A stretch of DNA of 64,000 nucleotides, taken from a virus. The position numbers and the translations under genes are program-made. The notes under the pieces were generated by a model. That model was not told the DNA's origin. It worked only from the letters and a program-made list of their open reading frames with translations, and searched no databases. Every line of letters begins with the position of its first letter. Position 1 is the stretch's first letter. The stretch is from IMG/VR virus record IMGVR_UViG_3300045988_133735; one strand, written 5' to 3'. Shown here in pieces: positions 1,581 through 50,048 of this stretch.

Positions 1581-4500
1581 TTAACGTCTATTCAGTTCCT
1601 GTACAACCTTGTTCGGCAGACGATTTACCAACTCACGAGCCAGTGCATCGCTATCACCAACGGGATTGTTCACATTCACATCACCAATAGACAGGGAAAT
1701 ACCACCAGCGTCGCGGCTTTGCACCATAGAAGCAGAACTATGTTTTGCCAATTGATCGCTGAACCACTTGTCTGGATTGCCGCCCATCTCAAACAGGCGA
1801 GAGGTAATATCAGCAGGAACAACACCATCGCCAGTCTCAAGATATGTATAACGTCCAGAAGCTGGCTTACGAACAATAAGTTCTGAACCTCTTTCGTCAA
1901 CGTTTGCAAAATGATTCGTTTTAGAAGATTTAAGACCATTCGCGTGACCACCCAAAAAGAAACCAGCAAAACCTCCCAAAAGAGTACCAATCAATGCTCC
2001 TACAGGTCCACCTATTGCCATACCCGCAGCTGCGCCCAGACCAGCACCAGTAAGAGTTGTAGCAGCCGTTTTGACTGTTTTATCTTCATTGGCGGTTGCG
2101 TCATTCTTTTTGTCTGTTTCGTCAGTTGCTTTATTCTCTTCTTTAGATACGATCTGTGTAGCGTTAATTGTGAGATTTGTTGCGCTCTTTTGTGTGTTTT
2201 CGGCAGTTTCAGAACTACTATTCGCAGTGTCTTTTGTATTCTCGGCAGTTTCTTTACTCTTGCCGAAAATATCCTTACACAGATTTACGATTCCACCAAT
2301 AGGACTTATGTCCCAGAAGAACGAAGCAACGGACTTTATTGCCTTCTTACCAAAGCCATCTTCTTTATTGGACCAGATTTTCTTCTGATTCTTCATGGCC
2401 TTTGTGCCGCCATAAATACCAAGCCCGCCAGCTGCAAGAATCGGAATCGCAGCGGGCCCAGCAGCAGCCAAGGCGCTTCCAGCTGTACCAATAAGTTTTC
2501 CAGCACCAGCAAGCAACTTACCTCCGCCACTAAGTAATGTAGTTCCAACCTTACCAATCCCGCCAAGAATCGTGGAACCAATCTTGCTCTTACTAACAGC
2601 ATTACCGACAGCCTTAAATCCGTTTACAACTGTGGAAACAATGCCGCCGCCTTCGCCGGAACCGCCGAATAGGCTTTGAGCGCCACCTTTGATCGTGTTC
2701 CAAATATTTGTAAACGCATTGATAATTCCATTGCCAGAACTTACAACCTGTTTTGTAATATTGTTATTCGCGGTTGTTAATATGTTCTTTAATGCGGTTC
2801 CCGTTTCTGTTGCAGTATCAACGAGCGTGGTTTTGACAGCGTTGACTGCCTGCTTGGCTGCATTAACATAAGATGTGCCAGAACTTGCAGCCTTTTCGCC
2901 ACCATTATTTAAGAATCCTTTTATCGTATTCCACAGACCTTTTGTGCCGAGATCTTTGTACTCACCAGTCTTAAACATGGAATACAGATTATTTAGTTTT
3001 GTTAGCGTATTTATCAGTGATTCAAGGTTTGTAATCAAATTCTGGATGCCGGTGATCGCGCTGCCAGTATTTAGACTTGCAATGATCTTATTGTGATATC
3101 CGTCCAGTGAGCCTTCCATCTGAGATAGACTCATCTTCTGGATCTGCGCAGTGTACTCAAGCTCCTTCTGGTAATCCTTCCAGCTCTTGCCGATATCATC
3201 CATGACCTCAGACAACTTGTCCTTGAACTCATTGTACTTCTTGATCTGGTCGTCAATAGCCTTTTCAGCGTCTTTATTATTCCATTCACGCTGCTTGTCG
3301 GCAAGGTCTTCGCGTGCAGTACGCACATCTTCGGCGTTTGCCTGCCACTCGTAACCATTCTCAGTGTACACACGGGTCGTGCGCTGTTGCTGGGCACGGG
3401 CGAGAGCATCTTGTGCCTTGGAAAGTTCAATGGCGCGTTCAGTAGCCTCATTATTTTCTTCCAGAGCTTCCTTCTGCTTATTCAGGGCTTCAATCCGCTT
3501 GTCGATGACTTTGCCCATAGCATCGCCCCAAATCTTGAGGTCGTTATTAGATTTGTCATTTGCGGACGAAAGGAGAGAGAGGAAAGAAGAAAGGATGTCT
3601 TTTGCATCAGATAGAGCAGACTTGAAACTTTCGACCGCATTTTTCGCGTCCTCCCAGTGAGCAATCAGTTTCGCCATCACTTGGGCATCGGTTTCTTGAA
3701 CATCTTGATATTTCTGATTATAAACAGCAGTCAGTTCATCTAAAGCTGCTTTCTTGGCAGCTTCTTTATCCTCATCAGATGCGTCAGAAGAATCAATACG
3801 ACCAACTGCACGGTCATATTTTTCTTTTGCAACCTTATATTCTAAAGTCGCCTTAACCAATACGTCGTACTCTTCTTCGGTAGGAGCACGTACAGCATCG
3901 TACATCTTCTTGAGATAATCACCGTATACAGTTCCATCAAATTCCTTCATTAGTGGTTCAAGCTGCTTCACATACATATCACGCAAACCAGTTGCGTTGA
4001 TTTTATATGTTCCATCATCTTGTATGAACTGATCGAGGAAAGACTGGTCAATTTGACCGAGCTCTTGAAGAGTATCTTGACTTTTAAGACTTCCGGTTTC
4101 CTGAATCTCTTCCAAAGCGCTACGGAAAGCACTAAATGTACTCTGGAATTTATCAATTTTAGTGTTTGCATCTTCGATGTCCGTGCCAAAACCGTTCCAG
4201 AAATCAGTCATGGAGATATCGCCTTTATTCAGTTGTTCAAGGCGATTTGACCACAGCTTAGCCAGACCGGTTTGCCCACTATCATTGGCAGCATTGATAA
4301 TTTTCCCAACAAGAATTTCAGCGGCCTTCTTGATCTTGTCATCATCGACATTGAGATTTCCGTTCTCATCAAGGAAAATGCCATCGAGTTCTGGGTGCTT
4401 GGTAACTAGTTCGGTGACTTTCTTTAGTGTATCGTAATCCGCAATCTGTTCTCCATTTGCATTATCAATTTTAGACAGATCATGAAGGATCTCCATGCCA

Positions 4501-7265
4501 GACTGGAATTCGTCTGTTTTACCAGTTGCTTCATCCAGCGCGGTATTTACACCTTCAATTGCATCCTTCAGTTGATTGAGCGAAATAGTCCCGTTCTTAG
4601 CGTGAGTGTCAAGATATTCAAGGACTTGATTGTACTGTCCGATCTTACCCGTGCCATCATTTGTAGCGGCAGCATGTTTTAGTTCTGCCTGAATCAGATC
4701 TCGACATGCAGTGGCATCTACAACCAATTCATTTCCTTGCTTTTTTAAACAAGAAGTATATTTGGAGTCAAGCCCCATGAGGGATTTCATCGTGTTAAGA
4801 CTTATGCTACCCCACTTGTTGTACTCCTCCATAGCAGAAGTCAGAGTGGACCATGCGTCAAGAAGTGTTTTAGAAGAATCCGCTGCCTTGTTCGAAGAAT
4901 CAGCGGCCTTTTTCGAAGAATTGCTAAACCCATCGAGCTGATTGCGTAAACCGGCAGCACCATTCATTGCGGCAGACATATTATTTCCAATAAGCGTTAA
5001 TCTGGTGTTCAATGCGTTCATAACACCGTCAATTTTAGCTTGAACAGCGTCAGCATCTTCTCCATTGGCTGCTCCCTGTGCAGCGGCTAATGCGGCAGCA
5101 AGTTCGCCTGTTCCGACAGTGGCATCTTTCAAAGCTGGGCATAAAGCAGTAAGCTTATTCTTTTCATCTTCAGTTGCTTCAGTAAATGTCTCGGCTTTTT
5201 CTGCAGCGTCTCCCTTTGCAATCGCATTTAGTTCTGATATCGCCTGAGAAATAGCTTCCATTTGAGCTTCTGCATATTGAGTTGCCAACAAATCTGCATA
5301 CGCACTTTGATTGACTTGGAGCTTTCCATTAACAAGTTCAAGAGTATTAAGATACTGGTCATCCATTTGTAAAAGAGCCTGCAACGAATCAACGCTCATG
5401 TACCCATACTGGTTGTATTCTTCAACAGCGCTAGAACAGGCTTTGTATGCTGATTGAATATTATCGATGACGCCCATTGTTTTTTCGAGTTTATCGGCGT
5501 AATCGTCAGCAGCTGCAGAGTTACTAATTTGCACAAGACCGAAACTTTCAAACACACCAATTAGAGACTCAAATGATATTTTATTCTCGTCTGCAGTTTT
5601 ATGGAGTTTTTCAAGCGCAGCTGTTTCGGTCTCAGTTTGATGAGAAGAGTCCTTATCAATGTTGATTATTGCCTCGCCACTCATTCCACTAAATGCATCA
5701 AGCCCATTGAATGTTTTCCAATCGCTTTGCTGAGAATCACCATTGTCGATATCATTCTTGATTTGTTTTATTTTTTCTGAGAATATATCAAGATTGGTAG
5801 TGTCAATACCTGTATTATCCTGTGCATTCGCCAGAGCTTTAGTGGCTGCAGTCATTGCGTTCGTGCCGGCAACATATTCGTCCTTGTACTGAGTGAAACT
5901 GTCAGCGTCAGTCTCGTAGCTGTTCATTTGCTCAGACACGGCAGAGGAAAGCTCTTCAACCTTGGTTTTCTGGGATTTAAAAGTTTCATTCAGAGCATCG
6001 AGTTCTTTCTTTTTATTTGCATACTCTTCAGAATCTTTTCCGCTAGAAGCTTCAATTTGGTCAAGTTCAACCTGAAGATTACGACGTTTTTGAGTAGTAT
6101 CTTCGAGTGCTGCTGCATACTCATGGAGAGATTCAGTCTTAGAAACTTTCTCTGCAACCTGATGAGTGCCAGCATTTGCACCACCCTCGGCATAAGAAAC
6201 ATTTACTGTGCGGGATTTCACAATACTGTCTTCTGTTTTATCATTCACAACAGCACTTGTGTCGGCATTTGCTTTATCGTTCGCGTCCTTCTCCAGTTGC
6301 TTCTTGAGTTCGAGTTGAGCCTGCAACATATCGTTGATGGCTTGTAACCGCTCGCGCTCGGCAGGATCAACGATATCCTCGATCTTTTTAACACCAGCGT
6401 CCTTCAGAGATTTGTTAAGCTCGTCAATCTTGGACTGAATCTCTTCAACATCCTTAGTGGCTTGCTGTGCAGCATCGTGAGAATCATTCATTGCAGCGAC
6501 AAGTTCTTCAGAATGCGTTTTTAGGTTCATAAGATAATCGACAATTTTAGTTGCGATAAAGGCAACAGCAGCTACACCAAGAGAGAGGAGAAGTTGTTTG
6601 CCATATTGAGCTACTACATTCCAGGCCTTTTGAGCCGCAGTAAGAGCTACTGTGGCGACCGTGCTCATCTGTTTAACGCTAATTTCTTTCAAGAATGCTT
6701 GAGAAAGTTTATAGACACCATTTTCTTGTTCTAAAATTCCAGCGTTGAACAGTTGTTGCGTTTTACTTGCATCGGAACAATGATTGGCGTAATCTTCCAT
6801 CAAAGCAATAGCATCTTGTGTGTTTGGAAGTGCGAGTACCCCTTTAGCGTCTTTTAACCCGCCTGCCTTCATGAATTCGTTCAGAACACCATTTGTAATG
6901 CCGTCTTTTTGAGATGCTATTTGTTCAAATAATTGAGAATTGAATTTTTCACCTGTTTGAACAGCATTTTTTGTATTTTCAATATAGTCCTCTAAGCCTT
7001 CATCAAAAGAAGACAAACTGAGAAATGCTTTTTGTTGAGCTTCGTCAAGATTTACAAATTGCGCAATAAATCCATCAATGCTTCCAATATCGTTAAAAAT
7101 TGAATGACTATCAAATTTTTTTGCATTTCCGATTTGATAATTTCCCAAGAGCATATATTTCTGAAGGATTTGCGGCAAATCTTTAAGCTGCTCTGACGCT
7201 TTTAATGTTTTATCAAGAGATCCATCTAAGGTCGTTAATTCACCTATTGACTTGTTGATTGTCAA
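1581..7265 (-). CDS. Giant (1894 aa) coiled-coil tail protein carrying the C-terminal hallmarks of a tape measure protein
   Basis: Long Ala/Glu/Lys/Gln coiled-coil composition. Gly-rich hydrophobic segments (..GGGKLLAGAGKLIGTAGSALAAAGPAAIPILAAGGLGIYGG..). C-terminal ..NVDERGSELIVRKPASG..GDGVVPA.. resembles the conserved tape-measure C-terminus. Starts with TTG and has no Shine-Dalgarno upstream. Confidence 0.6.
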   Translation of the reverse strand: MTINKSIGELTTLDGSLDKTLKASEQLKDLPQILQKYMLLGNYQIGNAKKFDSHSIFNDIGSIDGFIAQFVNLDEAQQKAFLSLSSFDEGLEDYIENTKNAVQTGEKFNSQLFEQIASQKDGITNGVLNEFMKAGGLKDAKGVLALPNTQDAIALMEDYANHCSDASKTQQLFNAGILEQENGVYKLSQAFLKEISVKQMSTVATVALTAAQKAWNVVAQYGKQLLLSLGVAAVAFIATKIVDYLMNLKTHSEELVAAMNDSHDAAQQATKDVEEIQSKIDELNKSLKDAGVKKIEDIVDPAERERLQAINDMLQAQLELKKQLEKDANDKANADTSAVVNDKTEDSIVKSRTVNVSYAEGGANAGTHQVAEKVSKTESLHEYAAALEDTTQKRRNLQVELDQIEASSGKDSEEYANKKKELDALNETFKSQKTKVEELSSAVSEQMNSYETDADSFTQYKDEYVAGTNAMTAATKALANAQDNTGIDTTNLDIFSEKIKQIKNDIDNGDSQQSDWKTFNGLDAFSGMSGEAIINIDKDSSHQTETETAALEKLHKTADENKISFESLIGVFESFGLVQISNSAAADDYADKLEKTMGVIDNIQSAYKACSSAVEEYNQYGYMSVDSLQALLQMDDQYLNTLELVNGKLQVNQSAYADLLATQYAEAQMEAISQAISELNAIAKGDAAEKAETFTEATEDEKNKLTALCPALKDATVGTGELAAALAAAQGAANGEDADAVQAKIDGVMNALNTRLTLIGNNMSAAMNGAAGLRNQLDGFSNSSKKAADSSNKAADSSKTLLDAWSTLTSAMEEYNKWGSISLNTMKSLMGLDSKYTSCLKKQGNELVVDATACRDLIQAELKHAAATNDGTGKIGQYNQVLEYLDTHAKNGTISLNQLKDAIEGVNTALDEATGKTDEFQSGMEILHDLSKIDNANGEQIADYDTLKKVTELVTKHPELDGIFLDENGNLNVDDDKIKKAAEILVGKIINAANDSGQTGLAKLWSNRLEQLNKGDISMTDFWNGFGTDIEDANTKIDKFQSTFSAFRSALEEIQETGSLKSQDTLQELGQIDQSFLDQFIQDDGTYKINATGLRDMYVKQLEPLMKEFDGTVYGDYLKKMYDAVRAPTEEEYDVLVKATLEYKVAKEKYDRAVGRIDSSDASDEDKEAAKKAALDELTAVYNQKYQDVQETDAQVMAKLIAHWEDAKNAVESFKSALSDAKDILSSFLSLLSSANDKSNNDLKIWGDAMGKVIDKRIEALNKQKEALEENNEATERAIELSKAQDALARAQQQRTTRVYTENGYEWQANAEDVRTAREDLADKQREWNNKDAEKAIDDQIKKYNEFKDKLSEVMDDIGKSWKDYQKELEYTAQIQKMSLSQMEGSLDGYHNKIIASLNTGSAITGIQNLITNLESLINTLTKLNNLYSMFKTGEYKDLGTKGLWNTIKGFLNNGGEKAASSGTSYVNAAKQAVNAVKTTLVDTATETGTALKNILTTANNNITKQVVSSGNGIINAFTNIWNTIKGGAQSLFGGSGEGGGIVSTVVNGFKAVGNAVSKSKIGSTILGGIGKVGTTLLSGGGKLLAGAGKLIGTAGSALAAAGPAAIPILAAGGLGIYGGTKAMKNQKKIWSNKEDGFGKKAIKSVASFFWDISPIGGIVNLCKDIFGKSKETAENTKDTANSSSETAENTQKSATNLTINATQIVSKEENKATDETDKKNDATANEDKTVKTAATTLTGAGLGAAAGMAIGGPVGALIGTLLGGFAGFFLGGHANGLKSSKTNHFANVDERGSELIVRKPASGRYTYLETGDGVVPADITSRLFEMGGNPDKWFSDQLAKHSSASMVQSRDAGGISLSIGDVNVNNPVGDSDALARELVNRLPNKVVQELNRR

Positions 7266-7275
7266 ACTGTATACT
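7247..7275 (+). promoter_or_regulatory. Sigma70-type promoter for the plus-strand cassette
   Basis: TTGACT (7247-7252), 17-nt spacer, TATACT (7270-7275). Overlaps the 5' end of the minus-strand giant ORF. The -35 lies in a small inverted repeat, TTGAC..GTCAA. Confidence 0.6.
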
Positions 7276-7323
7276 AATCTTAGTGGTCGGCAAAGATTAT
7301 TTGTGAAATAGGTGATAAGAATT

Positions 7324-7929
7324 ATGAGAATTGGTGAAATCGAAGCAGATATTGACTATAGACACGGCAAAGCGAATAAATGGGGCTTTTGGACAATAGG
7401 AGCTTTAACTGCTGAGGGAAAAAAGATTCTGAAAAAGTATCCAGACTATAAAATCCTAAAAGATGATTGGAGAGTAAAAAATGATGACGAATTTTTTGCA
7501 TCAGTTGTTTATGCCTATATGGTTGATTGTATTTTACAAGAATACAGCGACAACGAATATTTAATGAATGAATATGTAAAAGCAACCGAAGATAAACTAG
7601 CGACTCGCCCAAGCGGAAAAGGAGAGATGTCTCGCAAAGGTATAAACGAAGCATTCTTAAAGTCGTTCGAAGATTATATAAAAGAACAAAATAATCCCGG
7701 TATACTTAAAAGAGAACAAGAACAAGAAGAAAAAGAAAGAGCAGTAGCGCGAGCGCTTTCAGCCGAATACGAAGCAAAACATCCTCATATCACTTGTCCC
7801 TACTGCAAATCCACGAACACCGAAAAGATCAGCACCGTGAGCCGCGCTGTGTCTGTGTCCCTCGTGGGCGCTGCCAGCGGGAAGATCGGCAAACAGTGGC
7901 ACTGCAAAAACTGCGGCAGTAATTTTTAA
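7324..7929 (+). CDS. Hypothetical protein (201 aa) with C-terminal four-Cys zinc ribbon
   Basis: ATG 7324 with GGTGA 7 nt upstream (the track start 7312 is GTG). C-terminus reads CPYC..(36 aa)..CKNC. Confidence 0.55.
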   Translation: MRIGEIEADIDYRHGKANKWGFWTIGALTAEGKKILKKYPDYKILKDDWRVKNDDEFFASVVYAYMVDCILQEYSDNEYLMNEYVKATEDKLATRPSGKGEMSRKGINEAFLKSFEDYIKEQNNPGILKREQEQEEKERAVARALSAEYEAKHPHITCPYCKSTNTEKISTVSRAVSVSLVGAASGKIGKQWHCKNCGSNF

Positions 7930-7941
7930 AGGAGAATTAAA

Positions 7942-8277
7942 ATGAAAGTCAATCAGGACATTATGAACCTCATTTGCAAGCTTGAATACAGAATTGGCGA
8001 CACATGTGCAAATAGCGACTCGTACAACGGATGGACTGATGAATGGGGCGCTGATTTTCGGTATCCTGTAACCGTTGACGGCCATGGGAAATTCAGAGGT
8101 CGAATTGACGATCTTGGACTTGAACCGGAATCGCTTGGCGATATCTATTATAAATTTGGCGCAAACGAGATGCATATTGGGTACGGTATCAAGCATGTCC
8201 TAGAAGAGCTTGAAGATTTATATGGTCTTGATTTTGTAAAGCTTGAAGCAGAGCGGAAAGCAAAAGCGCAGAAGTGA
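7942..8277 (+). CDS. Hypothetical protein (111 aa)
   Basis: AAAGGAG lies 7 nt upstream of the ATG. Tightly packed after the previous plus-strand gene. Confidence 0.6.
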   Translation: MKVNQDIMNLICKLEYRIGDTCANSDSYNGWTDEWGADFRYPVTVDGHGKFRGRIDDLGLEPESLGDIYYKFGANEMHIGYGIKHVLEELEDLYGLDFVKLEAERKAKAQK

Positions 8278-8353
8278 TTGTATTACCAGCAAAACCTAGT
8301 AAACAATTCTATCGTAAGAACTGTGGGTATGAATGGTAAGGATGTGAACCAAG

Positions 8354-8920
8354 TTGTCTTTGGTGATGGCAATTGTATGCACTGACGGAATCGTTGTATC
8401 TGGCGATTTTAGAAGATCGAGATCTATCACAAATCCACAAACAGGGGATAAACAAGTTGTAGAATTTTACGACGATACGCACAAATTGATTAAAACAAAA
8501 TCCAATCGTGTAGTTGGCCATACTGGAGACTACTCTTTCAACAGCGGAGAATTAGTAGAAGACACGATATGCAGTGTGCTGCAATTGACAGACGCACTGA
8601 ATTCTCCAATTGATAGTGAGTTTGCGTATCTTGTTAGCTCCATTAGACATAACAAAAACTCACTCATTGAAGCTGGTATTATAAACGGACATAGAATTGT
8701 ATTGACATGGAAACAAGGCGAACCAATTAAACAGATAGTTATAAAAGGATGCGCAATTGGAGATATTGATGTATTCGAAAAATATAAAGAGGAATTCGAA
8801 TGTGAAATACAAGATATAACAATTAAAGAAGCTGTCCCTTTATTGCAAAAATATAACAGACTGATTGCGAGCGAAACGCCTACGATTAGTCCAGACTGTG
8901 AAGTAATGATCATTGAATAG
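8354..8920 (+). CDS. Proteasome beta / HslV-like Ntn-hydrolase fold candidate (188 aa)
   Basis: The N-terminus (M)SLVMAIVCTDGIVVSGDFRRS.. matches the remembered family pattern TTIxxxxxxDGVVxAxDxR. ..HKLIKTKSNRVVGHTGDYS.. resembles the Lys33/GxxGxxxD region. TTG start. The assignment is motif-level only. Confidence 0.4.
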   Translation: MSLVMAIVCTDGIVVSGDFRRSRSITNPQTGDKQVVEFYDDTHKLIKTKSNRVVGHTGDYSFNSGELVEDTICSVLQLTDALNSPIDSEFAYLVSSIRHNKNSLIEAGIINGHRIVLTWKQGEPIKQIVIKGCAIGDIDVFEKYKEEFECEIQDITIKEAVPLLQKYNRLIASETPTISPDCEVMIIE

Positions 8921-9160
8921 TTATGCTTGCCACCCGGAACAAACACATTTTATATAGTTTGCCCCATCTTTGGATAAAATATAATATTCGTCTTCATGCG
9001 GCTCGATACAGTTAATATTTTCTTCTTTTTCAAGTTCAACAAAACCTTTTTGATTACTTTCGCGATAATAAAATTTCTTATATGTCACTGTATCTCCTCC
9101 TTCCATCGAAATATAGCAAAAGCCCGGCCTCCCAGCAATAGGGAAGTCGGGCTTGTTCAT
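8921..9160 (-). CDS. Hypothetical protein (79 aa), uncertain
   Basis: ORF convergent with 8354-8920; the two stop codons abut. No recognisable SD before the ATG. Composition looks protein-like. Confidence 0.3.
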   Translation of the reverse strand: MNKPDFPIAGRPGFCYISMEGGDTVTYKKFYYRESNQKGFVELEKEENINCIEPHEDEYYILSKDGANYIKCVCSGWQA

Positions 9161-9179
9161 TATGATGACTGCACAGCAG

Positions 9180-9512
9180 TTACTTCAGAAGTTCAGCAAT
9201 CTCTTCAGCAGTCATACCGCTGGCCAGTGCATTGGCAACAATATCTTCTGCCTTTTTACGATTCAGCTCTGCCGCAATCTTTTCGTCAGCATCAGCCTTT
9301 TTCTTTTCGAGCTTTACAATCTCTTTGTTGAGTTTTTTCAACTCTGCTTCTTTTGCTTTACGCTGGGCGTTCAATGCAGCGATATTATCACCAATAGTTG
9401 CAATCTCCTGAGCAATAGATTCTGCGGCAGTATTCTTTTCAGCGATCTGTGCTGCGTAATCGATACCATCGAGAACCTTTGCTTTATTCTTGCTTCCTTT
9501 AGTACGTGCCAT
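9180..9512 (-). CDS. Lys/Ala/Glu-rich coiled-coil protein (110 aa)
   Basis: GGAGGT lies 8 nt upstream of ATG 9512-9510. Sits directly downstream of a perfect consensus promoter. Confidence 0.65.
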   Translation of the reverse strand: MARTKGSKNKAKVLDGIDYAAQIAEKNTAAESIAQEIATIGDNIAALNAQRKAKEAELKKLNKEIVKLEKKKADADEKIAAELNRKKAEDIVANALASGMTAEEIAELLK

Positions 9513-9566
9513 AATAAAATACCTCCACTACATGCGTTTTGTTTACATGTTGTTTTTAATATTTTT

Positions 9567-9595
9567 ATTATAGCCAGAAATACTAAGATAGTCAA
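9567..9595 (-). promoter_or_regulatory. Perfect-consensus sigma70-type promoter (minus strand)
   Basis: On the minus strand: TTGACT (9595-9590), 17-nt spacer, TATAAT (9572-9567). Confidence 0.7.
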
Positions 9596-9847
9596 CAAAA
9601 ATATTTTTCCACTTTTGACGGCAGGGGAAAGACCGCCTGTAATTTTTCCGCTGGAGCGTGTTGCGCCAGCAGTGATTTGGAGCACCCCATAGTGAATCTG
9701 CGGCGTTGTTACGCACGTAGTTCCACTCCGACATTATGCTCTCTGAAGCGTCTCTGGCAGTGCCTATTATAATAATGTAGGCGCATGCAGAGCTTGCCTG
9801 CGGATTCCTTTCGGTTCCCGGACGAGAATTACCCAAACTCGCCGTGG

Positions 9848-12800
9848 CTAGGCCACCATGTTCGTCGGTTTTACTAAATACTCCCTCATGCTTCGCAATG
9901 ATATAATAAAATACCTGCGGAGCACTTGTTCCGTGTCACCACCCGGAGTATTGCTGGGCACAATCATGAAACCCGTCATTTTGGGTTTACCCAGCTGAGT
10001 TGCAAATGCTGTGATGCCCAGTCCAGCAGGAAGGGCACCAGTGAGATTAATGATTTTATCAAGAAGTTTAACAATGGATGTGAGGAAAGATACGCCGCCC
10101 TTCACGAGGCCAGAAGAGAGAACGTCTTGAGAAAGGACTTGGAAGCTTGCATCGAGCTGTGCGAGACGGCCATTGATACTGTCGAGATACTTCTCGTTCT
10201 CTTCCCATGCCACGTTGGCGCTGTTAGCAGCGGATTCCATAGCAGATTCAGCAACGTCAAAGTTGTTTAGAATAGCACTAACTGCATTTGCGTTTCTCTT
10301 TCCGCCAATCATTTCAGTAACATTTGCCTGCGTTACATCGGACAGACCACTCCATACTTGAGACAGCTCTTTCATGATTTGATATGTACTCTTGAAATTT
10401 TTGCTATCCAGCATGATGTCAACGCCAGTCAGAGATTTCAGTTCACTGCGGAGCTCAGACACAGAATTGGCCATACCGTCAACTTCAATACCTGCATTCT
10501 CTGCGTCACTTTTAGCAGCACGGAGATACATTGACAAACTTTTTAAAGTTGTACCGACCGTATCTGCATCTTGGATAACTGCGTTTGCAGCAGTACCAAG
10601 CGCGATAGTTTCTTCCAGCGTATTATTAGCGGCCGACATAGCAGCAGAACTGCGAGTCAAGATTTCGCCAAGGTCTTTTGCAGTAACGGGCTGTGTATTT
10701 GCGACAGCGTCAATTTTATTAACGACATCTTCTGCTTGATCGGCTAACAGTCCAAAGCCTTGTAAAGTAGAAATCAAATACGAAGACGAGGTGTTAACGT
10801 CATCGATATTATCGCCAACGTTACGAAGTAGGGTAGAGTAGGTTGCTAAATTCTCGGCGTCTTCATCAGAATAACCAAGCCGCTTCCAATCTGCGGTTGA
10901 ATTAACATAGTCACTTATAGATACGCCTAACTTTTGAGCCTGTTCTGCGGCACGTCCCATATACTCTTCAAGGGATTTTCCTGTATACTCACTGACTTTT
11001 CTTAACTCAGTTACTGCCGTATCAATTTCGACCACATTCTGATACACGATCCGCAACGCGTCTTGCATCTTGTGCAGTGCTGCCATAGTGATCATAGTAC
11101 TCAAATGCTGGCCAAACAGTTTTTCGAACACATCAAGCAGATTTTTTGATTCGAGACCCAACTTTTTAGATTCAGCGCGAAGCTCTGCATATTTCTTTTT
11201 CAGTTCACCAATTTTCTCTGGTGCGTCACTTTGATTCAATGCTTCAAGCAACTCATAGAGAGACTTTCCAACGTCTGTTCCGTCAAGCTTTTTATGTTCT
11301 GCAATATAATCATGAATAGTTGCCTTCAGATTAGCGACTTCCATTGATGCCTTATTTATAGATTTTTCACGAGAGGCTTCTTTATTGAAATCTTTTGCTT
11401 CTTGTGTTGCTTCTCTATAGGCGAGGTGTAATTGATTTATTGCATCCGTTACAGAATTAATTTTATCTGGAGATATACCAAGGTTATTCTGTGCCCATCC
11501 TTTGGCAGCTGATACCGGATCTGAAGATTCGTTTATCGTATCGAGTAAAGTTTTGAGCTTTGAATCTTTTTCTTGTAGTTTGCCATAAAAAGAATAATCA
11601 GTACCATAATTCTTCTGGACATCCTTCATTGTGGCCCTATTTTGAGATATTGCATCGCTGACAGATTTTAAGTTTGATATCTTTGTACTTTCTCGTTTTG
11701 CGGCTTGGTTTTCCGCCTCTTCGACGGCTTTAACTTTTCTTTCGATTTCTTCCCAAATCTTTTTGACTTCTACAAGTTTTTCTTTATAAGCGTCAGTTTG
11801 AGGCTCAAGCTCATTTAACTGCTTGAGAAGATTATCGATACCATCAAATTTGACATTCTGGAGACTTCCATCGGCCTGCATCTGTCGAGCAACTTCAACA
11901 CCCTCGGCAATTTTGATACCTTCGCGTTCAAGTTTCTTATAATTGCTCTTCCAAATGGTGTATTGCGCGTTGGCTTTGTAAGATTCACGCTTTAGCTCAT
12001 TATAATCAACTGCATAATTCTCGTATGTGTTTGGATTTTGAGCGCTAAGTGTGGCCGCTTTGGTGATAACTCCATTAATAGAATTCTTTAATTTCTCGTT
12101 AGAACTGCCAGAGGCTTCTTCTGCAAGCTGATAGAACTTCTTTTCAATACTATCAACGGCTTTCGTAAGGTCTTTTTGCTTCTTTTCTACGGTATCTATA
12201 ACTGCCACAACAGATTTCCAGTTTTCTTCTGCGGCTTGAATTGCGTTGTTGTACTCTTCTGTACCAACCTTTGCTTTAGCGATCTGTGATACAAGTTCTT
12301 GCTGCTTTTGAAGCGCGACTTGGATATCCGTCGCCGTTTTACCCTCCGCTGCGGCTTCTTCTACTGTTCCATAAGTTTTTTGAGCGCCGGACAGTTGATT
12401 TACAAGATTTTGATATTGGTCGTTGCGTTTATTTTCTACGGCACGATTAGATGAACGGTATTCCTTTTCAGCCAAATCTGCTATATCGCGAACGTCTGTA
12501 AACTGATAGGGATTTACACCAGTGGAATCTTGGAAATTAAACATCAATTCAGAAAGACGAGTTTCTTCTTCTGCCAACTGCTTGTTTACTTCATCCAAAT
12601 CCTCTTTATCTTTTGCATCAACAAATCTACCTCTTTGTTTTTGCAGAGATATGATTTTCTGATAACTTGAAACAATATCGTCGATAGCTTTACTTCCATC
12701 AGAATTATCCTTCTTCTCTTGTGCAATAATATCGCGGGCAAGAAGTTTATTTTCTGCTTCTTCTTGCTTTTTGGTTGCCTCAGCGGCTTTTTCTTTCGCT

Positions 12801-15481
12801 TCTGTTTCTTCTTGTAATGCTTTTGTCGCTTCTTGTTGAATCTTTATGGCTACCTGTTGTTTTGCAATATCAAATTTATTATCAGAACTTGCTTGTGCAT
12901 AATAATATTTAAGTGCCTGTTTACGAATACTAGTGACTTTTAATGGATTATATCCAACTTCGCTTGCAGAAAGCATTTTTTCATTAAGCTCTGCTTCATC
13001 GGCAGAAATTTGATCTTCAATTTGGTGTAAGTCAAATGCCTGCTCTGGCTTTGTATATCTTCCACGTTTGCTTTCTAAACTAGTAAGTTCTCGATAGATA
13101 GATTCAATGGCTTTTAAATTATCTAACTCTGCTTGATCATATTTCTTCTGTGCAGTAACTACATCTCGATTAAAAGATCTATTTTCAGCATCAGCCTTTT
13201 TTTGAGCAGCATCAGCGATTTTTTGTTGAAGCTGTTCTTCTTGCTGCAACAATCTATTAGCTTCTTGTTGTGCTTTTACGTCTATAATGTTTGAATCTAT
13301 TTTGGATTTTGTGGTTCCCTTCTTCTTGGATTCTTTGCCAGCCGCTTCTTTAATTGCATCAACAATCTTCGCATTTTTCAGAATCAGATTGCCCGCGATA
13401 TCGAATTCCTTTTTCGAAATCTCAACATCATCAATCTTGACATCAGCTGCTTTGATTTTTACAGAGCCATTAAGTTTCAGGGGATCTGGTCTCTTGATAT
13501 CTTCATCTTTGAGTTCGACCTTGCCCTTTAAATCAATGACATCAGGTTTTTTAACATCATCCTTTACGTTCTTCTTTTTGCCCTTGGCGGTATCGTTAAC
13601 CGTAACGTTAGACACTTTGCCTTCCAGTTCGACTGCCGTTTTCGGAGGAGTGATGTCAGAAACCTTAAGTTCAACCTTACCGGGGATTTTCACAGATCCC
13701 TTCGGAGGAGTTACGTCTTCTACTTTAAGAGTTACCTTGCCGGGAATATTAACCGGTGCAGTCGGATCAACCGTGACAGTTCCGGGAATAGACACAGGAT
13801 TTTTGACATCCACGACAACGTCTGCATCTGTGATAGTAACTTTACCACGTATCGGCACAACATCATTAGCATTACTTTGATTATCATTCTTAGGGATATC
13901 TGGTTTATCAGGTTCATTTAACGATTTATTCAACTCATCTTTAACATGTTTTGCTGCATCTTTTTTAAGATGGAGATCAATAGGGGCTGAAATATCTTTA
14001 AACGCCTCATCAACTTTAAGCTGAAGAACGGCCGGATCAATATCGAATTTAACGTCTTTTACATTATAGACCCCGTCTTCAATCTGATTTTTTCCACCAC
14101 TATTTTGAGCGGCTTGCATTTTAATTTCTTGATTCTTGATAAAATCTGCGAGGTTTGTTGTTTCTGCAAATTTTGCAATTTTATCTGTATCAAATTTCTT
14201 GAAAAGGGCTTCATATTGCATGAGTTCATTCGAAAGTCCTTCGCGTGTTAGCACTGTTGCGGCGAGAATGCTTTTTTCTAAATCCACAGCAGTTTTACGC
14301 GCATCATTGATTGCATTCTGTTTATCTGCAATATTGCTCAATACCTTATCGAGTTTTTGCCCATACGTTTCAATAGTCGAAGCGTCTAAATGCCCAGAAG
14401 TGTCTGTTTTTTGTGCAGCGTTCGCTTCTTTTTGGACGTCTTTTATTTCTGCCTTAACAGCCTTTGCACTAGAGTTAATTTCTGATATTTTAGCATGGAC
14501 ATTCCCAAGCTCACCTGATACATTGTCCAGGACAGAATTGAACGATATTTTATTATCACCAGTTAATCCGTTTATTAACTTGGAAAAATCCATGACTTGG
14601 TCAGTTGTTTTAAATGCGTCTTTTGATTTATCAATAATCTCATCTAAAAAATCATCGATGGACATGAATTCTTTCAGCTTTTTGTTTAAATCAAAACCCT
14701 GTGCATTAAAGACATCCAATTTATCTTTGAATTTGTCTGAATCAAATGCAGAATATACAGAATCTAAAATTGATTTTAATTCTTTTGCCTTACTTCCAAG
14801 CTGAGTAAATTGATCATTAAATGCATTTATATTAATTTTATCGTCATCTAACCAATTGTCTGCATATAATCCAGCCCAAATATCTTTTATTTCATTTACA
14901 AGATTTTCGACTTGAGATAAATTTCTTTTCTTTGTTGTATCTGAAATTTTATAATTCAATAAATCGTTGATATTAAAAGTCCCAGATAAACCACCAACAA
15001 ATTCATCACTTACCTCATTCGCAACTTGTTTAGCAATTGTTTTGAATTCTTTCGTAGGGAATATATCATTTACAAAAGAACCCAATCGATCTGTATTACT
15101 TGTTAAATTTTTTAGATAATAACTTAATTGTTGATTGACTTCTTTTAGTTGATTTTTTAACTGCTTAGTCAACTCACTCGAAAAATCATCAACGTTAACA
15201 CCAACAGTAACTTTCGGAATATCGCCAATGCCGTTAATTTGCTGTTGAATATCAGTTTTTAGTTTTTCAGTATCGACAACAGGCGTTATACTTGCAGTTG
15301 CCTTGATGTTTTTTAATTTATCTTCGACCTTCTTTTTTATGCCATCAACATTAGGGTCAATATCAATCTGTGGCTTTTCACCGCTTTGTTTTACTTTTCG
15401 CTCAATGCTCGTCTTTAACTCTGTTGGTTTGATTTGTGGATCTACCTTAACTTTGATACTCAGTTCTGGTTCACGCGCCAT
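9848..15481 (-). CDS. Giant (1877 aa) coiled-coil protein with a tape-measure core region near its C-terminus
   Basis: Residues ~1480-1720 (..QKLGVSISDY..ISTLQGFGL..NKIDAVANTQPVTAKDLGEILTRSSAAMSAANNTLEETIALGTAANAVIQDADTVGTTLKSLSMYLRAA..) look like the TP901-type tape-measure core, followed by a hydrophobic segment. The N-terminal ~1450 aa is coiled coil with internal repeats. Confidence 0.6.
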   Translation of the reverse strand: MAREPELSIKVKVDPQIKPTELKTSIERKVKQSGEKPQIDIDPNVDGIKKKVEDKLKNIKATASITPVVDTEKLKTDIQQQINGIGDIPKVTVGVNVDDFSSELTKQLKNQLKEVNQQLSYYLKNLTSNTDRLGSFVNDIFPTKEFKTIAKQVANEVSDEFVGGLSGTFNINDLLNYKISDTTKKRNLSQVENLVNEIKDIWAGLYADNWLDDDKININAFNDQFTQLGSKAKELKSILDSVYSAFDSDKFKDKLDVFNAQGFDLNKKLKEFMSIDDFLDEIIDKSKDAFKTTDQVMDFSKLINGLTGDNKISFNSVLDNVSGELGNVHAKISEINSSAKAVKAEIKDVQKEANAAQKTDTSGHLDASTIETYGQKLDKVLSNIADKQNAINDARKTAVDLEKSILAATVLTREGLSNELMQYEALFKKFDTDKIAKFAETTNLADFIKNQEIKMQAAQNSGGKNQIEDGVYNVKDVKFDIDPAVLQLKVDEAFKDISAPIDLHLKKDAAKHVKDELNKSLNEPDKPDIPKNDNQSNANDVVPIRGKVTITDADVVVDVKNPVSIPGTVTVDPTAPVNIPGKVTLKVEDVTPPKGSVKIPGKVELKVSDITPPKTAVELEGKVSNVTVNDTAKGKKKNVKDDVKKPDVIDLKGKVELKDEDIKRPDPLKLNGSVKIKAADVKIDDVEISKKEFDIAGNLILKNAKIVDAIKEAAGKESKKKGTTKSKIDSNIIDVKAQQEANRLLQQEEQLQQKIADAAQKKADAENRSFNRDVVTAQKKYDQAELDNLKAIESIYRELTSLESKRGRYTKPEQAFDLHQIEDQISADEAELNEKMLSASEVGYNPLKVTSIRKQALKYYYAQASSDNKFDIAKQQVAIKIQQEATKALQEETEAKEKAAEATKKQEEAENKLLARDIIAQEKKDNSDGSKAIDDIVSSYQKIISLQKQRGRFVDAKDKEDLDEVNKQLAEEETRLSELMFNFQDSTGVNPYQFTDVRDIADLAEKEYRSSNRAVENKRNDQYQNLVNQLSGAQKTYGTVEEAAAEGKTATDIQVALQKQQELVSQIAKAKVGTEEYNNAIQAAEENWKSVVAVIDTVEKKQKDLTKAVDSIEKKFYQLAEEASGSSNEKLKNSINGVITKAATLSAQNPNTYENYAVDYNELKRESYKANAQYTIWKSNYKKLEREGIKIAEGVEVARQMQADGSLQNVKFDGIDNLLKQLNELEPQTDAYKEKLVEVKKIWEEIERKVKAVEEAENQAAKRESTKISNLKSVSDAISQNRATMKDVQKNYGTDYSFYGKLQEKDSKLKTLLDTINESSDPVSAAKGWAQNNLGISPDKINSVTDAINQLHLAYREATQEAKDFNKEASREKSINKASMEVANLKATIHDYIAEHKKLDGTDVGKSLYELLEALNQSDAPEKIGELKKKYAELRAESKKLGLESKNLLDVFEKLFGQHLSTMITMAALHKMQDALRIVYQNVVEIDTAVTELRKVSEYTGKSLEEYMGRAAEQAQKLGVSISDYVNSTADWKRLGYSDEDAENLATYSTLLRNVGDNIDDVNTSSSYLISTLQGFGLLADQAEDVVNKIDAVANTQPVTAKDLGEILTRSSAAMSAANNTLEETIALGTAANAVIQDADTVGTTLKSLSMYLRAAKSDAENAGIEVDGMANSVSELRSELKSLTGVDIMLDSKNFKSTYQIMKELSQVWSGLSDVTQANVTEMIGGKRNANAVSAILNNFDVAESAMESAANSANVAWEENEKYLDSINGRLAQLDASFQVLSQDVLSSGLVKGGVSFLTSIVKLLDKIINLTGALPAGLGITAFATQLGKPKMTGFMIVPSNTPGGDTEQVLRRYFIISLRSMREYLVKPTNMVA

Positions 15482-15548: not shown

Positions 15549-16013
15549 TTATTTGTCGTGCTCGATTCGATTTTTTAGTAGCTTTACAATATCAGCGTAT
15601 CGATAATCGATGTCGTCTTGTGTGTTTTCCATGAATGGACGTGGTTTTGTCCACTTATATTTTCTATAATTCCACGGATTGTAAGCGCCTTCTTCGATTA
15701 TACGTGCCAAACTATCTGGTTTGTTTTTGAAATTTGGAGCGTCTAAGCGTGGTCCATCAATGGGAGCTTCTTCATACACATATAGCGTGTGATCTCGAAC
15801 TTTGTGTTTTAGATTTTTATCGTCTACTAAGCCACCAGATCCCTCGCGCCGTTCATATTCGACGGGGGAGTAGGTTGAATACACGTCTTTCTGTACATGA
15901 GATTTAAGCCGCTCTTTTACAGTGCTTGCAATTTCGTTTTTTAGTGCAAGATTTGCACGCCTCATGATTTCAGTCTGAAGAGCATCCACCGTGGTAGCTG
16001 TAAACTTTGCCAT
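15549..16013 (-). CDS. Virion-module protein (154 aa), function unknown
   Basis: ATG 16013-16011 with AAGGAG 7 nt upstream. The longer track ORF start at 16085 has no SD. Confidence 0.5.
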   Translation of the reverse strand: MAKFTATTVDALQTEIMRRANLALKNEIASTVKERLKSHVQKDVYSTYSPVEYERREGSGGLVDDKNLKHKVRDHTLYVYEEAPIDGPRLDAPNFKNKPDSLARIIEEGAYNPWNYRKYKWTKPRPFMENTQDDIDYRYADIVKLLKNRIEHDK

Positions 16014-16017
16014 AATC

Positions 16018-16539
16018 TTACTCCTTGTCTTTGGTGACCACTGTGGCGTGAATTCCATCAAGTACGCCTTCTGGAGTTTTAACATTATAGCTGTTATCGA
16101 AAACGGGCTTTGTCATGTTCTCTTCAGAAATAGTTTTAATCATTTCTTTCATATTAAACTGCTCGCCAATACCATTCAGCACATCGGCTGCTAACTTCAT
16201 CAACTCCTCAAACGGCTGATTCTTTGCAGTTGCCTCGAACAGCGCCATATACTGCTGACGTTCAATCTCGATCTTCTCACGGCAAGCCTTGTTCAGCGTA
16301 CCAAGAATATACTTGCGAGGAGCTTCGTTCATCATCTTTGTGGTCTCATCAGAAAATGCCAGCTCGCTCAGCGCGTTCTGATCCATGCCGGTTGTATCAG
16401 TGTCTGTAAAGTAGACAACAGCAGCAATACGGAAAGCATAATCATATAGTGCGGGATCATACTTGCCATTACGCTTTGACAGGTCTACAACACCATCAAC
16501 AAACTGGATGCGCTCTTCTAGGTTCAGATTATATTTCAT
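16018..16539 (-). CDS. Tail assembly chaperone-like protein (173 aa), assigned by position
   Basis: Acidic protein between the major tail gene and the tape-measure-like gene. AGGAGG lies upstream of the ATG. Confidence 0.4.
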   Translation of the reverse strand: MKYNLNLEERIQFVDGVVDLSKRNGKYDPALYDYAFRIAAVVYFTDTDTTGMDQNALSELAFSDETTKMMNEAPRKYILGTLNKACREKIEIERQQYMALFEATAKNQPFEELMKLAADVLNGIGEQFNMKEMIKTISEENMTKPVFDNSYNVKTPEGVLDGIHATVVTKDKE

Positions 16540-25052: not shown

Positions 25053-26573
25053 TTACTCCTCCTGTCTATCTGCTGTTACTTCGCCAGCGTCACTTAATTG
25101 CTTGCCTTCACTTGCATTAGATGGGCGTCCGCCCTCGTTTACAGCGCCAGATTGTGTATTAGAACTTTTAAGCGGAACTTCAACATTATTTAAGCCGAGT
25201 ACATCATTTTCAAGATAAGCCATATTTTCATAATCCGTACCAGCAAACCCGGCGGTTGCAAGGATAGCGCTACGTGTTGGAATGCCATATTGGGCGTCCT
25301 TTAGATATCGCTCATGCATTTCGGCACGGTTGTAATGTGTCACCGGCAGGAAATTGATACGGAATTTATAAGAACTTGATACGCTCTTGAGTTTACGATT
25401 TACCCAACGCTCCAGCTGACGAATCACCGCGAATACAATCATTTGGTCATTTACAGTACACAGATTCAGCGTTGAAGCAGCCGGATCGTCACCGCCGCCA
25501 AACAAGATTTTGTTTACACCAGCCTGCGCAAATAGTGTTGCTTCGGCCTTTGCAACCTCGTTCGTATCACTATTTACACCGCTTTTGTCAAAATTCCAGT
25601 CAGTTAATTTCATGGGCGTCAAAATCGCACCAATATTCGGCGGCAACACATTACTCATCATGTCGTAGAACTCTTTGGCAGTTTCATAGTCAATCAGGAA
25701 CGAACCATCTTCGTCACTGATAGGGATTTCCATCGCAATGGCTTTGTAGTTGTTGGCTTCGCTTGCGTTCTTGCTAATGGCGCGGTAATCCTCAATATCC
25801 GCCAGAGCACTAAATAGACTCACAAACGGCGGAATGGGGATATAGTCATGTTCATTTACCTTAATACAGATTGACTTAGAACTATCCAATTCTTGCCATT
25901 TATATAACTGAGTATTGGTTTTATAGGTGTTATACATGGTTTGGAACTCAGGCGGATAATTCAGTAGCTTGTCTTGGTTTGAATCAAAATATGAAAAGTT
26001 AAATGCAAAGTTGTATACACCATCTTCAATGCTGCTGATTTTACAATAGTCTGCATCTAGGTTCTGGAAAGCAAAACTATCATTTGTCTCCCATGCGTAT
26101 CCATAATAAACGTCGTCGCGAAATGCAATCGTCAAAATCTTGGTTGCTTCGTGTGGAATATTCATCAGTTCAACAGCTGTGGAGCTTGCGTAGTATGCTT
26201 TCTTAAACTTATTCTGATTGATGCTTTTAGATCGATCAAGACCGTAGGGAACAAGCTCATAAGAGAATGTAGACATATTCGCAAAATATTGAATCAGCCG
26301 ACGATAGTAGTTTGAAATATTGAACAGATATTTGCTCATATTCCGCAGTTGCTTTTCGTAACTAGCTGGATTAGCAAGATACTTCACGATTTGATCCTTC
26401 GTATACTTGGTATATGTCGGATTGGTCTCTGATGTGGATTCAAGATTACGAATACCGATTTTTGATAAGTTAGCATAGACACCACTTACCAAATCAGAAT
26501 ATGTAACATAAGAGGTTTTTCCACTTTTGGAATTCGTGACCATGACCTTTTTATTCATTATATTTTCAGCCAT
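25053..26573 (-). CDS. Portal protein
   Basis: 506 aa, immediately downstream of TerL (1-nt overlap). Size and position are typical of a portal. Confidence 0.6.
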   Translation of the reverse strand: MAENIMNKKVMVTNSKSGKTSYVTYSDLVSGVYANLSKIGIRNLESTSETNPTYTKYTKDQIVKYLANPASYEKQLRNMSKYLFNISNYYRRLIQYFANMSTFSYELVPYGLDRSKSINQNKFKKAYYASSTAVELMNIPHEATKILTIAFRDDVYYGYAWETNDSFAFQNLDADYCKISSIEDGVYNFAFNFSYFDSNQDKLLNYPPEFQTMYNTYKTNTQLYKWQELDSSKSICIKVNEHDYIPIPPFVSLFSALADIEDYRAISKNASEANNYKAIAMEIPISDEDGSFLIDYETAKEFYDMMSNVLPPNIGAILTPMKLTDWNFDKSGVNSDTNEVAKAEATLFAQAGVNKILFGGGDDPAASTLNLCTVNDQMIVFAVIRQLERWVNRKLKSVSSSYKFRINFLPVTHYNRAEMHERYLKDAQYGIPTRSAILATAGFAGTDYENMAYLENDVLGLNNVEVPLKSSNTQSGAVNEGGRPSNASEGKQLSDAGEVTADRQEE

Positions 26574-49769: not shown

Positions 49770-50048
49770 ATGCTTGAATGGCAAGAGCTTTGTAGCCACG
49801 CCATCTGGGTCACAGTTGGAATCTTTGTTGTTCCATATGCTGGGCTTCAGATTTGTCGGGGGTTTTATTACCTAGATGAGTTCCCGCGATTCAATCGAGT
49901 CTGTCGGGGGTTGTATCGTGCAGTGAAAAATCTAGTGGATGGCATCGTAGCCGTCTATCAGGATTGTCCGTGTGAATTCGTTCTGTATACCACAGCGGCG
50001 ATTGTAATCATTGCTGTTGCGATAAATAAAGCGGCGGCACTCATTTAA
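49770..50048 (+). CDS. Small membrane protein (92 aa)
   Basis: AAGGAG upstream. Two hydrophobic helices. Confidence 0.5.
   Translation: MLEWQELCSHAIWVTVGIFVVPYAGLQICRGFYYLDEFPRFNRVCRGLYRAVKNLVDGIVAVYQDCPCEFVLYTTAAIVIIAVAINKAAALI

Follow-up and report, generated by a model that had tools for sequence, protein, structure and literature searches.

A probable group I intron with an exchangeable set of accessory genes in the tape-measure gene of an SPbeta-like Faecalibacterium phage

On a viral sequence of 64,000 nucleotides (nt), IMG/VR record IMGVR_UViG_3300045988_133735 (hereafter the window, meaning the whole stretch analysed), two giant open reading frames (ORFs) of the tail module are, as read from their sequence, the exons of a single tape-measure gene on the minus strand. 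The segment between them, 9988 to 7263, is very probably a group I intron that splits this gene, and it probably splices itself. Behind its ribozyme core lies a cargo bay of two convergent gene units. A preliminary description had placed a two-promoter cassette of moron type here, between two separate tail genes. It located both promoters (7247-7275 on the plus strand, 9567-9595 on the minus strand), five ORFs and the stop codons of the convergent units, which abut at 8920/8921, and in all of this it was right; it omitted, however, a structured RNA of about 380 nt whose first part lies within the 3' end of the upstream ORF. Nor are the two tail ORFs separate genes; they are minus-strand halves of one. 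A search of IMG/VR with an exact 31-mer of the core retrieved 53 viral contigs, 15-150 kb long and mostly in the range 80-150 kb. Both intron ends are present in 23 loci, to which all counts out of 23 refer, and RNA pairing and covariation were assessed on 46 distinct core variants; L001, L036, L057, L058, L060 and similar names are locus labels of this analysis.

One tape-measure gene in two exons

Positions 9989-15481, minus strand: tape-measure exon 1, 1,831 codons, with a PhageMin_Tail domain at residues 1513-1727
Positions 7263-9988, minus strand: predicted group I intron, 2,726 nt; its first base, A 9988, follows exon U 9989, and its last base is the omega-G, 7263
Positions 1581-7262, minus strand: tape-measure exon 2, 1,893 codons, with only weak tape-measure matches

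Joining 15481..9989 to 7262..1581 gives a single ORF of 3,724 amino acids (aa) without an internal stop, in which the junction reads ATQLG|TINKSIG; at the RNA level the predicted ligated exons are ...CAGCUGGGU joined to ACAAUCAAC..., also written CAGCTGGGT|ACAATCAACAAGTCAAT. The annotated ORFs have other borders (9848-15481 and 1581-7265, both on the minus strand). The first, of 1,877 aa, consists of exon 1 and 46 intron codons read through to a TAG stop at 9850-9848, while the second opens with a TTG at 7265 that spans the splice site, has no Shine-Dalgarno (SD) sequence, and is called differently by gene callers in near-identical loci. ORF 9848-15481 (ORF7) aligns only to positions 580-943 of the 2,625 positions of the tape-measure profile phrog_4211, which suggests that the protein should continue past this ORF. 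The frame is open across the same junction in 22 of the 23 loci, and the joined product aligns, in single high-scoring segments that cross the junction, with two tape-measure proteins that have no interruption, those of Lactococcus phage LW81 and Brevibacillus phage Sundance. Set against ATQLG|TINKSIG, the LW81 sequence ATKFGGLGKSIS is ungapped at the junction, the nearest gap being one residue, eight positions upstream; the wider alignment pairs ...LPASFGIIVGLATKFGGLGKSIS... of LW81 with ...LPAGLG-ITAFATQLGTINKSIG... of the window. The intron position coincides with the border between a conserved and a highly variable part of the tape measure.

The predicted ribozyme and its guide sequence

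Positions 9609-9988, minus strand: ribozyme core, 380 nt, drawable as P3-P9
Positions 9969-9988, minus strand: P1a hairpin
Positions 9953-9966, minus strand: internal guide sequence, UGAUUGU-GCCCAGC
Positions 9930-9947, minus strand: P2
Positions 9888-9925, minus strand: P2.1
Positions 9864-9868 and 9728-9732, minus strand: 5' and 3' strands of P3, CCGAC/GUCGG
Positions 9844-9856 and 9821-9843, minus strand: extra hairpins hpA and hpB, between P3 and P4
Positions 9801-9820, minus strand: P4-P5-P4', CGGG-AA-CC-GAAA-GG-AA-UCCG, drawn by homology
Positions 9752-9792, minus strand: P6
Positions 9736-9743 and 9679-9685, minus strand: 5' and 3' strands of P7, G[A]GAGCAU/GUGCUCC, with a bulged A after the first pair, drawn by homology
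Positions 9692-9726, minus strand: P8
Positions 9648-9672, minus strand: P9
Positions 9620-9637, minus strand: P9.1
Positions 7275-7299, minus strand: 3'-terminal intron hairpin with the conserved loop (Y)YGACCA, followed by (A/U)UAUAC-N5-G and exon 2

The guide sequence can pair with both exons. Its segment GCCCAGC (9959-9953) forms P1 with the end of exon 1, GCUGGGU, in seven base pairs (bp), six of them Watson-Crick and the last a terminal U.G, and this helix is identical in 23/23 loci and in 46/46 cores. The adjoining UGAUUGU (9966-9960) forms P10 with the start of exon 2, ACAAUCA, directly after G7263; P10 comprises 7 bp in the window and 5-7 bp across the 23 loci, where exon changes from A to G stay compatible with G.U pairing, and its exon 2 bases share the reading frame of the downstream ORF. 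All 23 introns end in G. Among the features by which we tested for a group I intron, the U.G pair in P1, the omega-G together with P10, and a restored frame colinear with intron-less homologues are present. The helices expected of the catalytic core (a P3/P7 pseudoknot, a P4-P6 domain, and P7 with a bulged A and the G-binding G-C pair) can all be drawn, but P3, P4, P5 and P7 show no two-sided changes, and a match to RF00028 is lacking. At the other end of the element, the 3'-terminal hairpin occurs in 17 sequence variants, most of which re-form it with compensatory changes in the stem. Three further candidates were rejected. A group II intron has no reverse transcriptase here, no D5-like hairpin near 7263-7420, and no Rfam match to D1-D4 or D5-D6; a long-range stem that would join the promoter regions (9592-9582 with 7284-7273) is convincing in the window but fails in relatives, where its 3' strand belongs to the local covarying hairpin; pairing of the GACCA loop with AAAAGUGG after P9.1 finds no support in the variants GUAG and GAGG.

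Could the segment instead be a DNA element that a recombinase excises before late expression, as skin is from sigK and SPbeta from spsM? A tyrosine-integrase gene does stand beside tape-measure fragments in some relatives, but the cassette itself holds no recombinase, its junctions share no common core repeat (...CTGGGT|AAACCC against ...AGTTTG|ACAATC), and what is conserved are RNA helices and a guide sequence, so that we find excision barely credible.

The case for a folded RNA comes from comparison. Window positions 9118-11169 are shared with the human-gut relative L001. Aligned with it, the upstream ORF is nearly invariant over its final ~140 nt, as are the next ~240 nt, against ~80% identity in the adjoining coding sequence, and there are compensatory changes (for example GGUGGC..GCCAC against GGCAGC..GCUGU); a near-invariant block with such changes is the signature of a structured RNA and not of a protein tail. 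RNAalifold and the manual model concur on P1, the hairpin inside L1, P3, P8, P6, P9.1 and two further hairpins. Over the 46 cores the 68 drawn pairs are 98.4% paired, compared with 37-46% when the partners are slid, and 11 pairs change on both sides, giving a covariation score reached by none of 500 shuffles. P2.1, hpA, P6, P8, P9, P9.1 and the 3' hairpin each occur in 8-30 sequence versions, nearly all of which, where examined, refold as hairpins. The core is 84-97% identical to that of the window, compared with ~62% for exon 2 and 64-96% for exon 1. Its elements follow the order of those in T4 td, and its Q motif AAUCCGCAGGCAAG and R motif UUCAGAGAGCAUAAUGUCGG resemble the respective Rfam RF00028 consensus sequences, AAuCCGCAGCCAA and GGUUCAaAGACUAAAcGgCaG. 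The heptamer GUGCUCC occurs twice in the core, in the 5' strand of P2.1 (9919-9925) and in the 3' strand of P7 (9679-9685, both minus strand); P2.1 could on this account compete with P7 for GAGAGCAU, which may point to an alternative fold or be a coincidence.

These data also bear on two readings without splicing. In the first, an ordinary moron cassette lies between two giant tail genes that are translated separately. Public gene calls do list two ORFs, of 1,877 and 1,894 aa, the promoters and the hairpin of the cassette would suit a moron, and Rfam names no intron here; this reading is nonetheless very unlikely, given a second ORF whose TTG start spans the proposed splice site without an SD sequence, a first ORF whose last 46 codons are conserved as RNA and not as protein, a junction that is ungapped against uninterrupted tape-measure proteins, and P1, P10 and the omega-G in 23/23 loci. 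In the second, the element is a decayed intron or insertion that no longer splices, leaving the tape-measure gene broken and the prophage either defective or reliant on the truncated 1,877-aa product. The missing homing endonuclease, the missing Rfam match and the atypical extra hairpins would fit such decay. Yet many diverged relatives keep both frames intact, over 1,831 codons in exon 1 and 1,893 in exon 2, conservation is higher in the core than in the exons, compensatory changes keep the helices of the core, and IMG/VR has the element on 53 viral contigs of 15-150 kb, which leaves decay only a very slight probability.

Several observations weigh against a functional group I intron. Rfam searches of 64 kb, 3.3 kb and 451 nt returned no intron family at the gathering score or at E<=10, and a control search with RF00028 did find T4 td, at 42.5 bits, even if under the gathering score of 50, while it did not find the window core. 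No pair of P1, P3, P4, P5 or P7 changes on both sides among the cores sampled; covariation therefore backs the peripheral helices only and speaks neither for nor against these five. The hairpins hpA and hpB occupy the place of a canonical 3-nt J3/4, P5 has only 2 bp, and translation of exon 1 for 46 codons into the intron, through P1-P3, could hinder folding. Neither a spliced transcript nor an intron-less allele turned up; a search with the ligated-exon pattern gave 0 matches in IMG/VR and eight in JGI metagenomes, none of them related to tape measures. Finally, no homing endonuclease of the LAGLIDADG, GIY-YIG, HNH, His-Cys, PD-(D/E)xK or EDxHD type was detected in the five ORFs of the window or in nine further cargo families.

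The Rfam result is mitigated by two more controls: an unrelated core in L058 reaches 24.3 bits (E 4.5e-4) in a full-length alignment, and the 272-nt ORF-less intron of L036 goes wholly undetected, which together with the low td score speaks for limited sensitivity of RF00028. A blastn search of the core against GenBank phages gave MT837120 as the sole match. A protein query that spans the junction matched no protein over both halves, and a case at 58% reads into the intron. Screens based on Rfam would overlook this class of intron, and a search model made from the 46 variants of the core would detect further members.

The cargo bay and its phage

Positions 9567-9595, minus strand: sigma-A-type promoter of cc110, TTGACT-17-TATAAT; in L057 and L058 the same module follows an unrelated ribozyme core
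Positions 9180-9512, minus strand (sense): cc110, 110 aa, AT-hook-like N terminus ARTKGSKNK and a coiled coil
Positions 9120-9154, both strands: GC-rich hairpin between the convergent units, with U-rich runs downstream in each direction
Positions 8921-9088, minus strand: 55-aa ORF with GTG start at 9088 and SD sequence GGAGGAG; WP_270563447.1, Faecalibacterium prausnitzii
Positions 8354-8920, plus strand (antisense): p188, 188 aa, proteasome-beta-like Ntn hydrolase, variable cargo
Positions 7942-8277, plus strand (antisense): p111, 111 aa, no detectable relatives of known function
Positions 7324-7929, alternative start 7312, plus strand (antisense): Zn-ribbon protein Zn201/205, ATG 7324 behind AGGTGA; adjoins the 3' splice site
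Positions 7247-7275, plus strand: sigma-A-type promoter of the antisense unit, TTGACT-17-TATACT; straddles the 3' splice site

The 23 complete introns measure 2,003-5,196 nt and keep one layout of core, sense genes, antisense genes and 3' hairpin. In the window the bay extends over 2.3 kb from P9.1 to the terminal hairpin and holds four to five genes, compared with two to ten in relatives, in two convergent units. The genes cc110 and Zn-ribbon are present in all 23 introns, p111 in 15, a retropepsin-like protease in 14, p188 in four and the 55-aa ORF in three; other families in relatives comprise membrane proteins and small proteins. The preliminary description had proposed that conservation of the cassette in all relatives would speak against a moron, and this holds for the two end genes and not for the variable middle. 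The presence or absence of the whole cassette that it envisaged at this locus was not seen, as the intron is present in every relative retrieved and no empty site turned up.

How might these genes be expressed? In a scan of 4000-13000 with the two hexamers scored together out of 12, the minus-strand site (9595-9567) reaches 11/12 and ranks first, and the plus-strand site (7247-7275) reaches 10/12, in joint second place with two others. However, the 22 promoter-like sites observed lie at chance level (19.6 +/- 4.4 expected), which speaks against a reading by motif alone; because the motif by itself is no proof, conservation carries the argument instead. The plus-strand promoter keeps TTGACT, a 17-nt spacer of differing sequence and TATAAT or TATACT in 23/23 relatives. 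Its -35 hexamer (7247-7252) lies within exon 2 and its -10 hexamer (7270-7275) within the conserved intron tail, and the exon part, AAGUCAA (Lys-Ser codons), is invariant even though the exon 2 proteins are only 30-50% identical. The minus-strand promoter, TTGAC(T/A)-17-TATAAT, is kept with differing spacers in all listed variants except one and precedes cc110 in at least four unrelated upstream contexts. The 79-nt stretch 9100-9178, which contains the hairpin 9120-9154, folds at -26.4 and -28.1 kcal/mol (z -2.4 and -3.5); the hairpin is conserved in L001 and is likely a bidirectional terminator. Both units thus look transcriptionally autonomous as far as sequence can tell. Among the marks of a moron, an own promoter and terminator within a late operon are present at the sequence level, as conserved hexamers and a predicted terminator hairpin; presence or absence among similar phages and an intergenic position are lacking, since the end genes occur in 23/23 introns and the unit is intragenic.

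The sense unit is led by cc110, which belongs to a cluster of 678 members and whose exact sequence occurs on 471 contigs, indexed in 965 blocks of the collection. A 79-aa ORF (8921-9160) annotated behind it had already been called doubtful, and rightly, as its first 24 codons overlap the hairpin and public genomes call the 55-aa form; members of the 55-aa cluster named "DNA polymerase" and "helicase" are a clustering artefact. The Zn-ribbon protein, at the head of the antisense unit, combines a helical N-terminal domain with a C-terminal CxxC...CxxC zinc ribbon and has 239 unnamed homologues; Foldseek gave it no match in the PDB or BFVD and no nuclease-like fold. One homologue, 51% identical, stands alone in a bacterial chromosome (L060 6001-6663, GCA_041328755.1), with a diacylglycerol-kinase gene on one side, groES/groEL on the other, a SIR2_2 gene nearby and small variable ORFs around it.

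For p188, the earlier label "Ntn-hydrolase-like" is confirmed by a fold match to an alpha-beta-beta-alpha sandwich: the AF2 model (pLDDT 92) matches the proteasome beta/Anbu/HslV fold with probability 1.0 and TM scores of 0.6-0.73, and Ser2, Asp18, Lys44 and Gly136 are invariant in 21 homologues. Ser2 is a candidate nucleophile, which removal of the Met or of a propeptide would expose. With the proteasome-beta/Anbu/HslV proteins p188 shares the fold, the position of the N-terminal nucleophile, an Asp about 17 residues on, and a Lys, and it differs from them in an identity of only ~10-17%, in Ser for Thr, and in having neither a Pfam or PDB sequence match nor an ATPase partner. Its homologue in L057 is 28% identical. 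Pfam, PHROGs and NCBIfam searches with the cargo returned only zinc ribbons, coiled-coil noise and a sub-threshold retropepsin match in relatives; the defence models of PADLOC-DB 2.0 gave only coiled-coil noise for cc110 and a weak retropepsin-type match (E 2e-3) for the protease of a relative; sequence searches of the PDB gave no match, and the search for transposase or TnpB domains in the cargo yielded only weak zinc-ribbon similarities. The statement that this gene combination matches no described system therefore stands for Pfam, PHROGs, NCBIfam and PADLOC.

The phage itself is assigned to the SPbeta-like temperate phages of Faecalibacterium. At 32856-35414 (minus strand) it encodes an 852-aa protein whose RdRP-family domain, PF05183, marks it as a YonO-type single-subunit RNA polymerase; this places the phage in the SPbeta-like group, of whose structural families relatives carry, among others, YomU, YomW, YomN and YonB; TerL (26573-28330) and PhoH (40838-42163) are encoded in the window as well. 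YonO transcribes the late structural operon of SPbeta (PMC5467207). By analogy, the late genes here are probably read by the phage's own polymerase, and the sigma-A promoters in the intron would then use a different one. The identical locus lies 30-85 kb inside metagenome scaffolds of 200-350 kb, and the exact cc110 and 55-aa sequences also occur on a contig of 805 kb, where the 55-aa ORF bears the NCBI name of an F. prausnitzii protein; such positions deep in large scaffolds indicate a temperate phage, and its occurrence as a prophage makes expression of the cargo from a lysogen plausible.

Two more distant SPbeta-like phages (L057 10146-13929 and L058 9372-~11650) have, at this tape-measure site or no more than a few codons away from it, a group I core unrelated to that of the window. 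Behind it come the same promoter and cc110 module (85-100% aa identity) and related Zn-ribbon, membrane and Ntn-like genes in the same orientation logic; a search by eye for P1 and the 5' splice site of this intron gave no fixed assignment. A second intervening sequence, missing from the window, interrupts the gene in relatives at ORF7 residue 1643/1644. It measures 272 nt and is ORF-less in L036 (836-1108), and it extends over ~1.3-1.7 kb with a similar Cys-rich ORF in L030, L039, L041, L050 and L072; the L072 ORF, the one scanned, matches the treble-clef family DUF2116.

Apart from these introns, the L058 gene shows two further apparent breaks (~7799-8001 and 12060-12199). A tyrosine-integrase gene lies within the tail module of L057 (6122-7111), directly upstream of a tape-measure fragment, and database proteins such as P0077 and P0116 combine integrase and PhageMin_Tail Pfam matches, which may represent another kind of insertion in the tape-measure gene. 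Directly upstream of the tape-measure gene in the window are overlapping minus-strand ORFs of 178 and 173 aa (15549-16085 and 16018-16539), where relatives have a YomN-family gene; the two are a candidate frameshifted tail-assembly chaperone pair. Elsewhere in the window, 50575-50664 (plus strand) matches the Twister-P5 ribozyme (47.1 against a gathering score of 37.6 bits), antisense to ORF 50045-50818, and 58323-63054 holds a tmRNA gene (58514-58900, tag ANYNSYRCAA*) clustered with tRNA-Pro, Met, Leu x3 and Gly, which could be phage-encoded or mark a border between prophage and host.

Proposed function and known systems

We propose that a late pre-mRNA, probably made by the YonO-type polymerase of the phage, would carry the intron, whose 5' 380 nt would fold as the ribozyme. 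GTP would attack after U9989, the guide would align exon 2 via P10, and exon 1 would attack after G7263, yielding ...ATQLG-TINKSIG... and a full-length tape measure. The bay, with cc110 and the 55-aa ORF in the sense unit and the Zn-ribbon protein, p111 and p188 in the antisense unit, would be read by the sigma-A RNA polymerase of the host, apart from the late programme, for example in a lysogen or in early infection, and its products would act as moron-type accessory genes, most likely in phage-host or phage-phage conflict. We incline, with some reserve, to the view that the cargo consists of accessory genes transcribed by the host RNA polymerase. The idea of independent expression in the preliminary description is to this extent borne out by the conserved sigma-A-type promoters, the hairpin and the variable interior: together with the YonO-type late polymerase and the prophage state, the promoters make a moron-like autonomy plausible. 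The cassette itself, however, is intron cargo inside one gene. The intron would make insertion of the cargo into an essential gene phenotypically silent, and the fixed end genes, the core and exon 2 could provide homologous flanks for exchange of the middle genes.

The cargo might also serve the intron itself, which would splice as proposed, with cc110 (DNA binding) and the Zn-ribbon protein forming a non-canonical homing, maturase or maintenance system. These two are the sole genes found in 23/23 introns, two cores that are unrelated but share a site both come with cc110, and the core is more conserved than its flanks, as expected after horizontal spread. We consider this version unlikely all the same, as both proteins lack a nuclease fold or motif, a member of the Zn-ribbon family also stands by itself in a bacterial chromosome with no intron nearby, and no empty target site was found. 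The most far-reaching version of our reading is a group I intron serving as an island of exchangeable accessory genes: the bay would be bounded by cc110 and the Zn-ribbon gene as fixed ends, common to two unrelated cores, and organized in convergent units for the host polymerase that include antisense genes and a promoter made of an exon -35 and an intron -10. Splicing would let the prophage keep a hotspot for conflict or lysogenic conversion within an essential late gene, and the fixed genes may perhaps be a maintenance or mobility system without a nuclease. Taken jointly, we offer these statements tentatively, at somewhat less than an even chance of being right in every part.

For annotation, the intron would mean that a very common human-gut prophage lineage recorded with two tail proteins of ~1,880 aa really has one tape measure of ~3,700 aa, and the merged protein alters the predicted tail length and the gene counts. 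The bay, with its proteasome-like hydrolase, retropepsin-like protease and membrane proteins, offers a defined and comparably framed set of genes with a possible role in phage conflict or lysogenic conversion in Faecalibacterium.

Finally, we would like to place the element among known systems. Phage group I introns are usually viewed as carriers of endonucleases or as empty ribozymes, and searches of the full-text literature turned up neither this element nor any intron described as carrying several accessory genes that are exchangeable and have promoters of their own. The Moonbeam paper was set aside as a tape-measure precedent, as its introns lie in terminase and polymerase genes. Introns in capsid and tail genes that are spliced in the course of late expression are known from temperate Cluster J mycobacteriophages, one of them with a bottom-strand ORF (PMC3706429). 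Like these, and like T4 td/I-TevI, nrdD/I-TevII and the intron of the SPO1 DNA polymerase gene, the window intron interrupts an essential phage gene, has a U.G pair in P1 and an omega-G, and keeps its ORFs outside the core; with T4 td it also shares the P3-P9 core in the same order. Unlike the ORF-bearing group I introns of phages, it holds no homing endonuclease but exchangeable multi-gene convergent units with host-type promoters, one of them split over the 3' splice site, it has two extra hairpins between P3 and P4, and it is RF00028-negative. With morons it shares sigma-70/sigma-A-type promoters, a terminator-like hairpin, a place in the late structural region of a prophage and differing gene content, and it departs from them in lying inside a gene, where it would be tolerated only because the intron removes it from the mRNA, and in its fixed end genes. 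A further comparison is with the IStrons of Clostridia, group I introns fused to IS605/IS607 elements, which carry non-endonuclease genes and in which splicing silences the insertion phenotype (PMC10690162). As in IStrons, the core stands at the 5' end and several non-endonuclease genes follow within the intron; unlike them, the window element has no tnpA, tnpB, omega-RNA or transposon ends, its cargo is variable and partly antisense, and it occupies one fixed site in a tail gene. If our reading is true, an endonuclease-free intron with exchangeable, self-promoted genes would widen the uses to which introns are put and would be a phage counterpart to IStrons.

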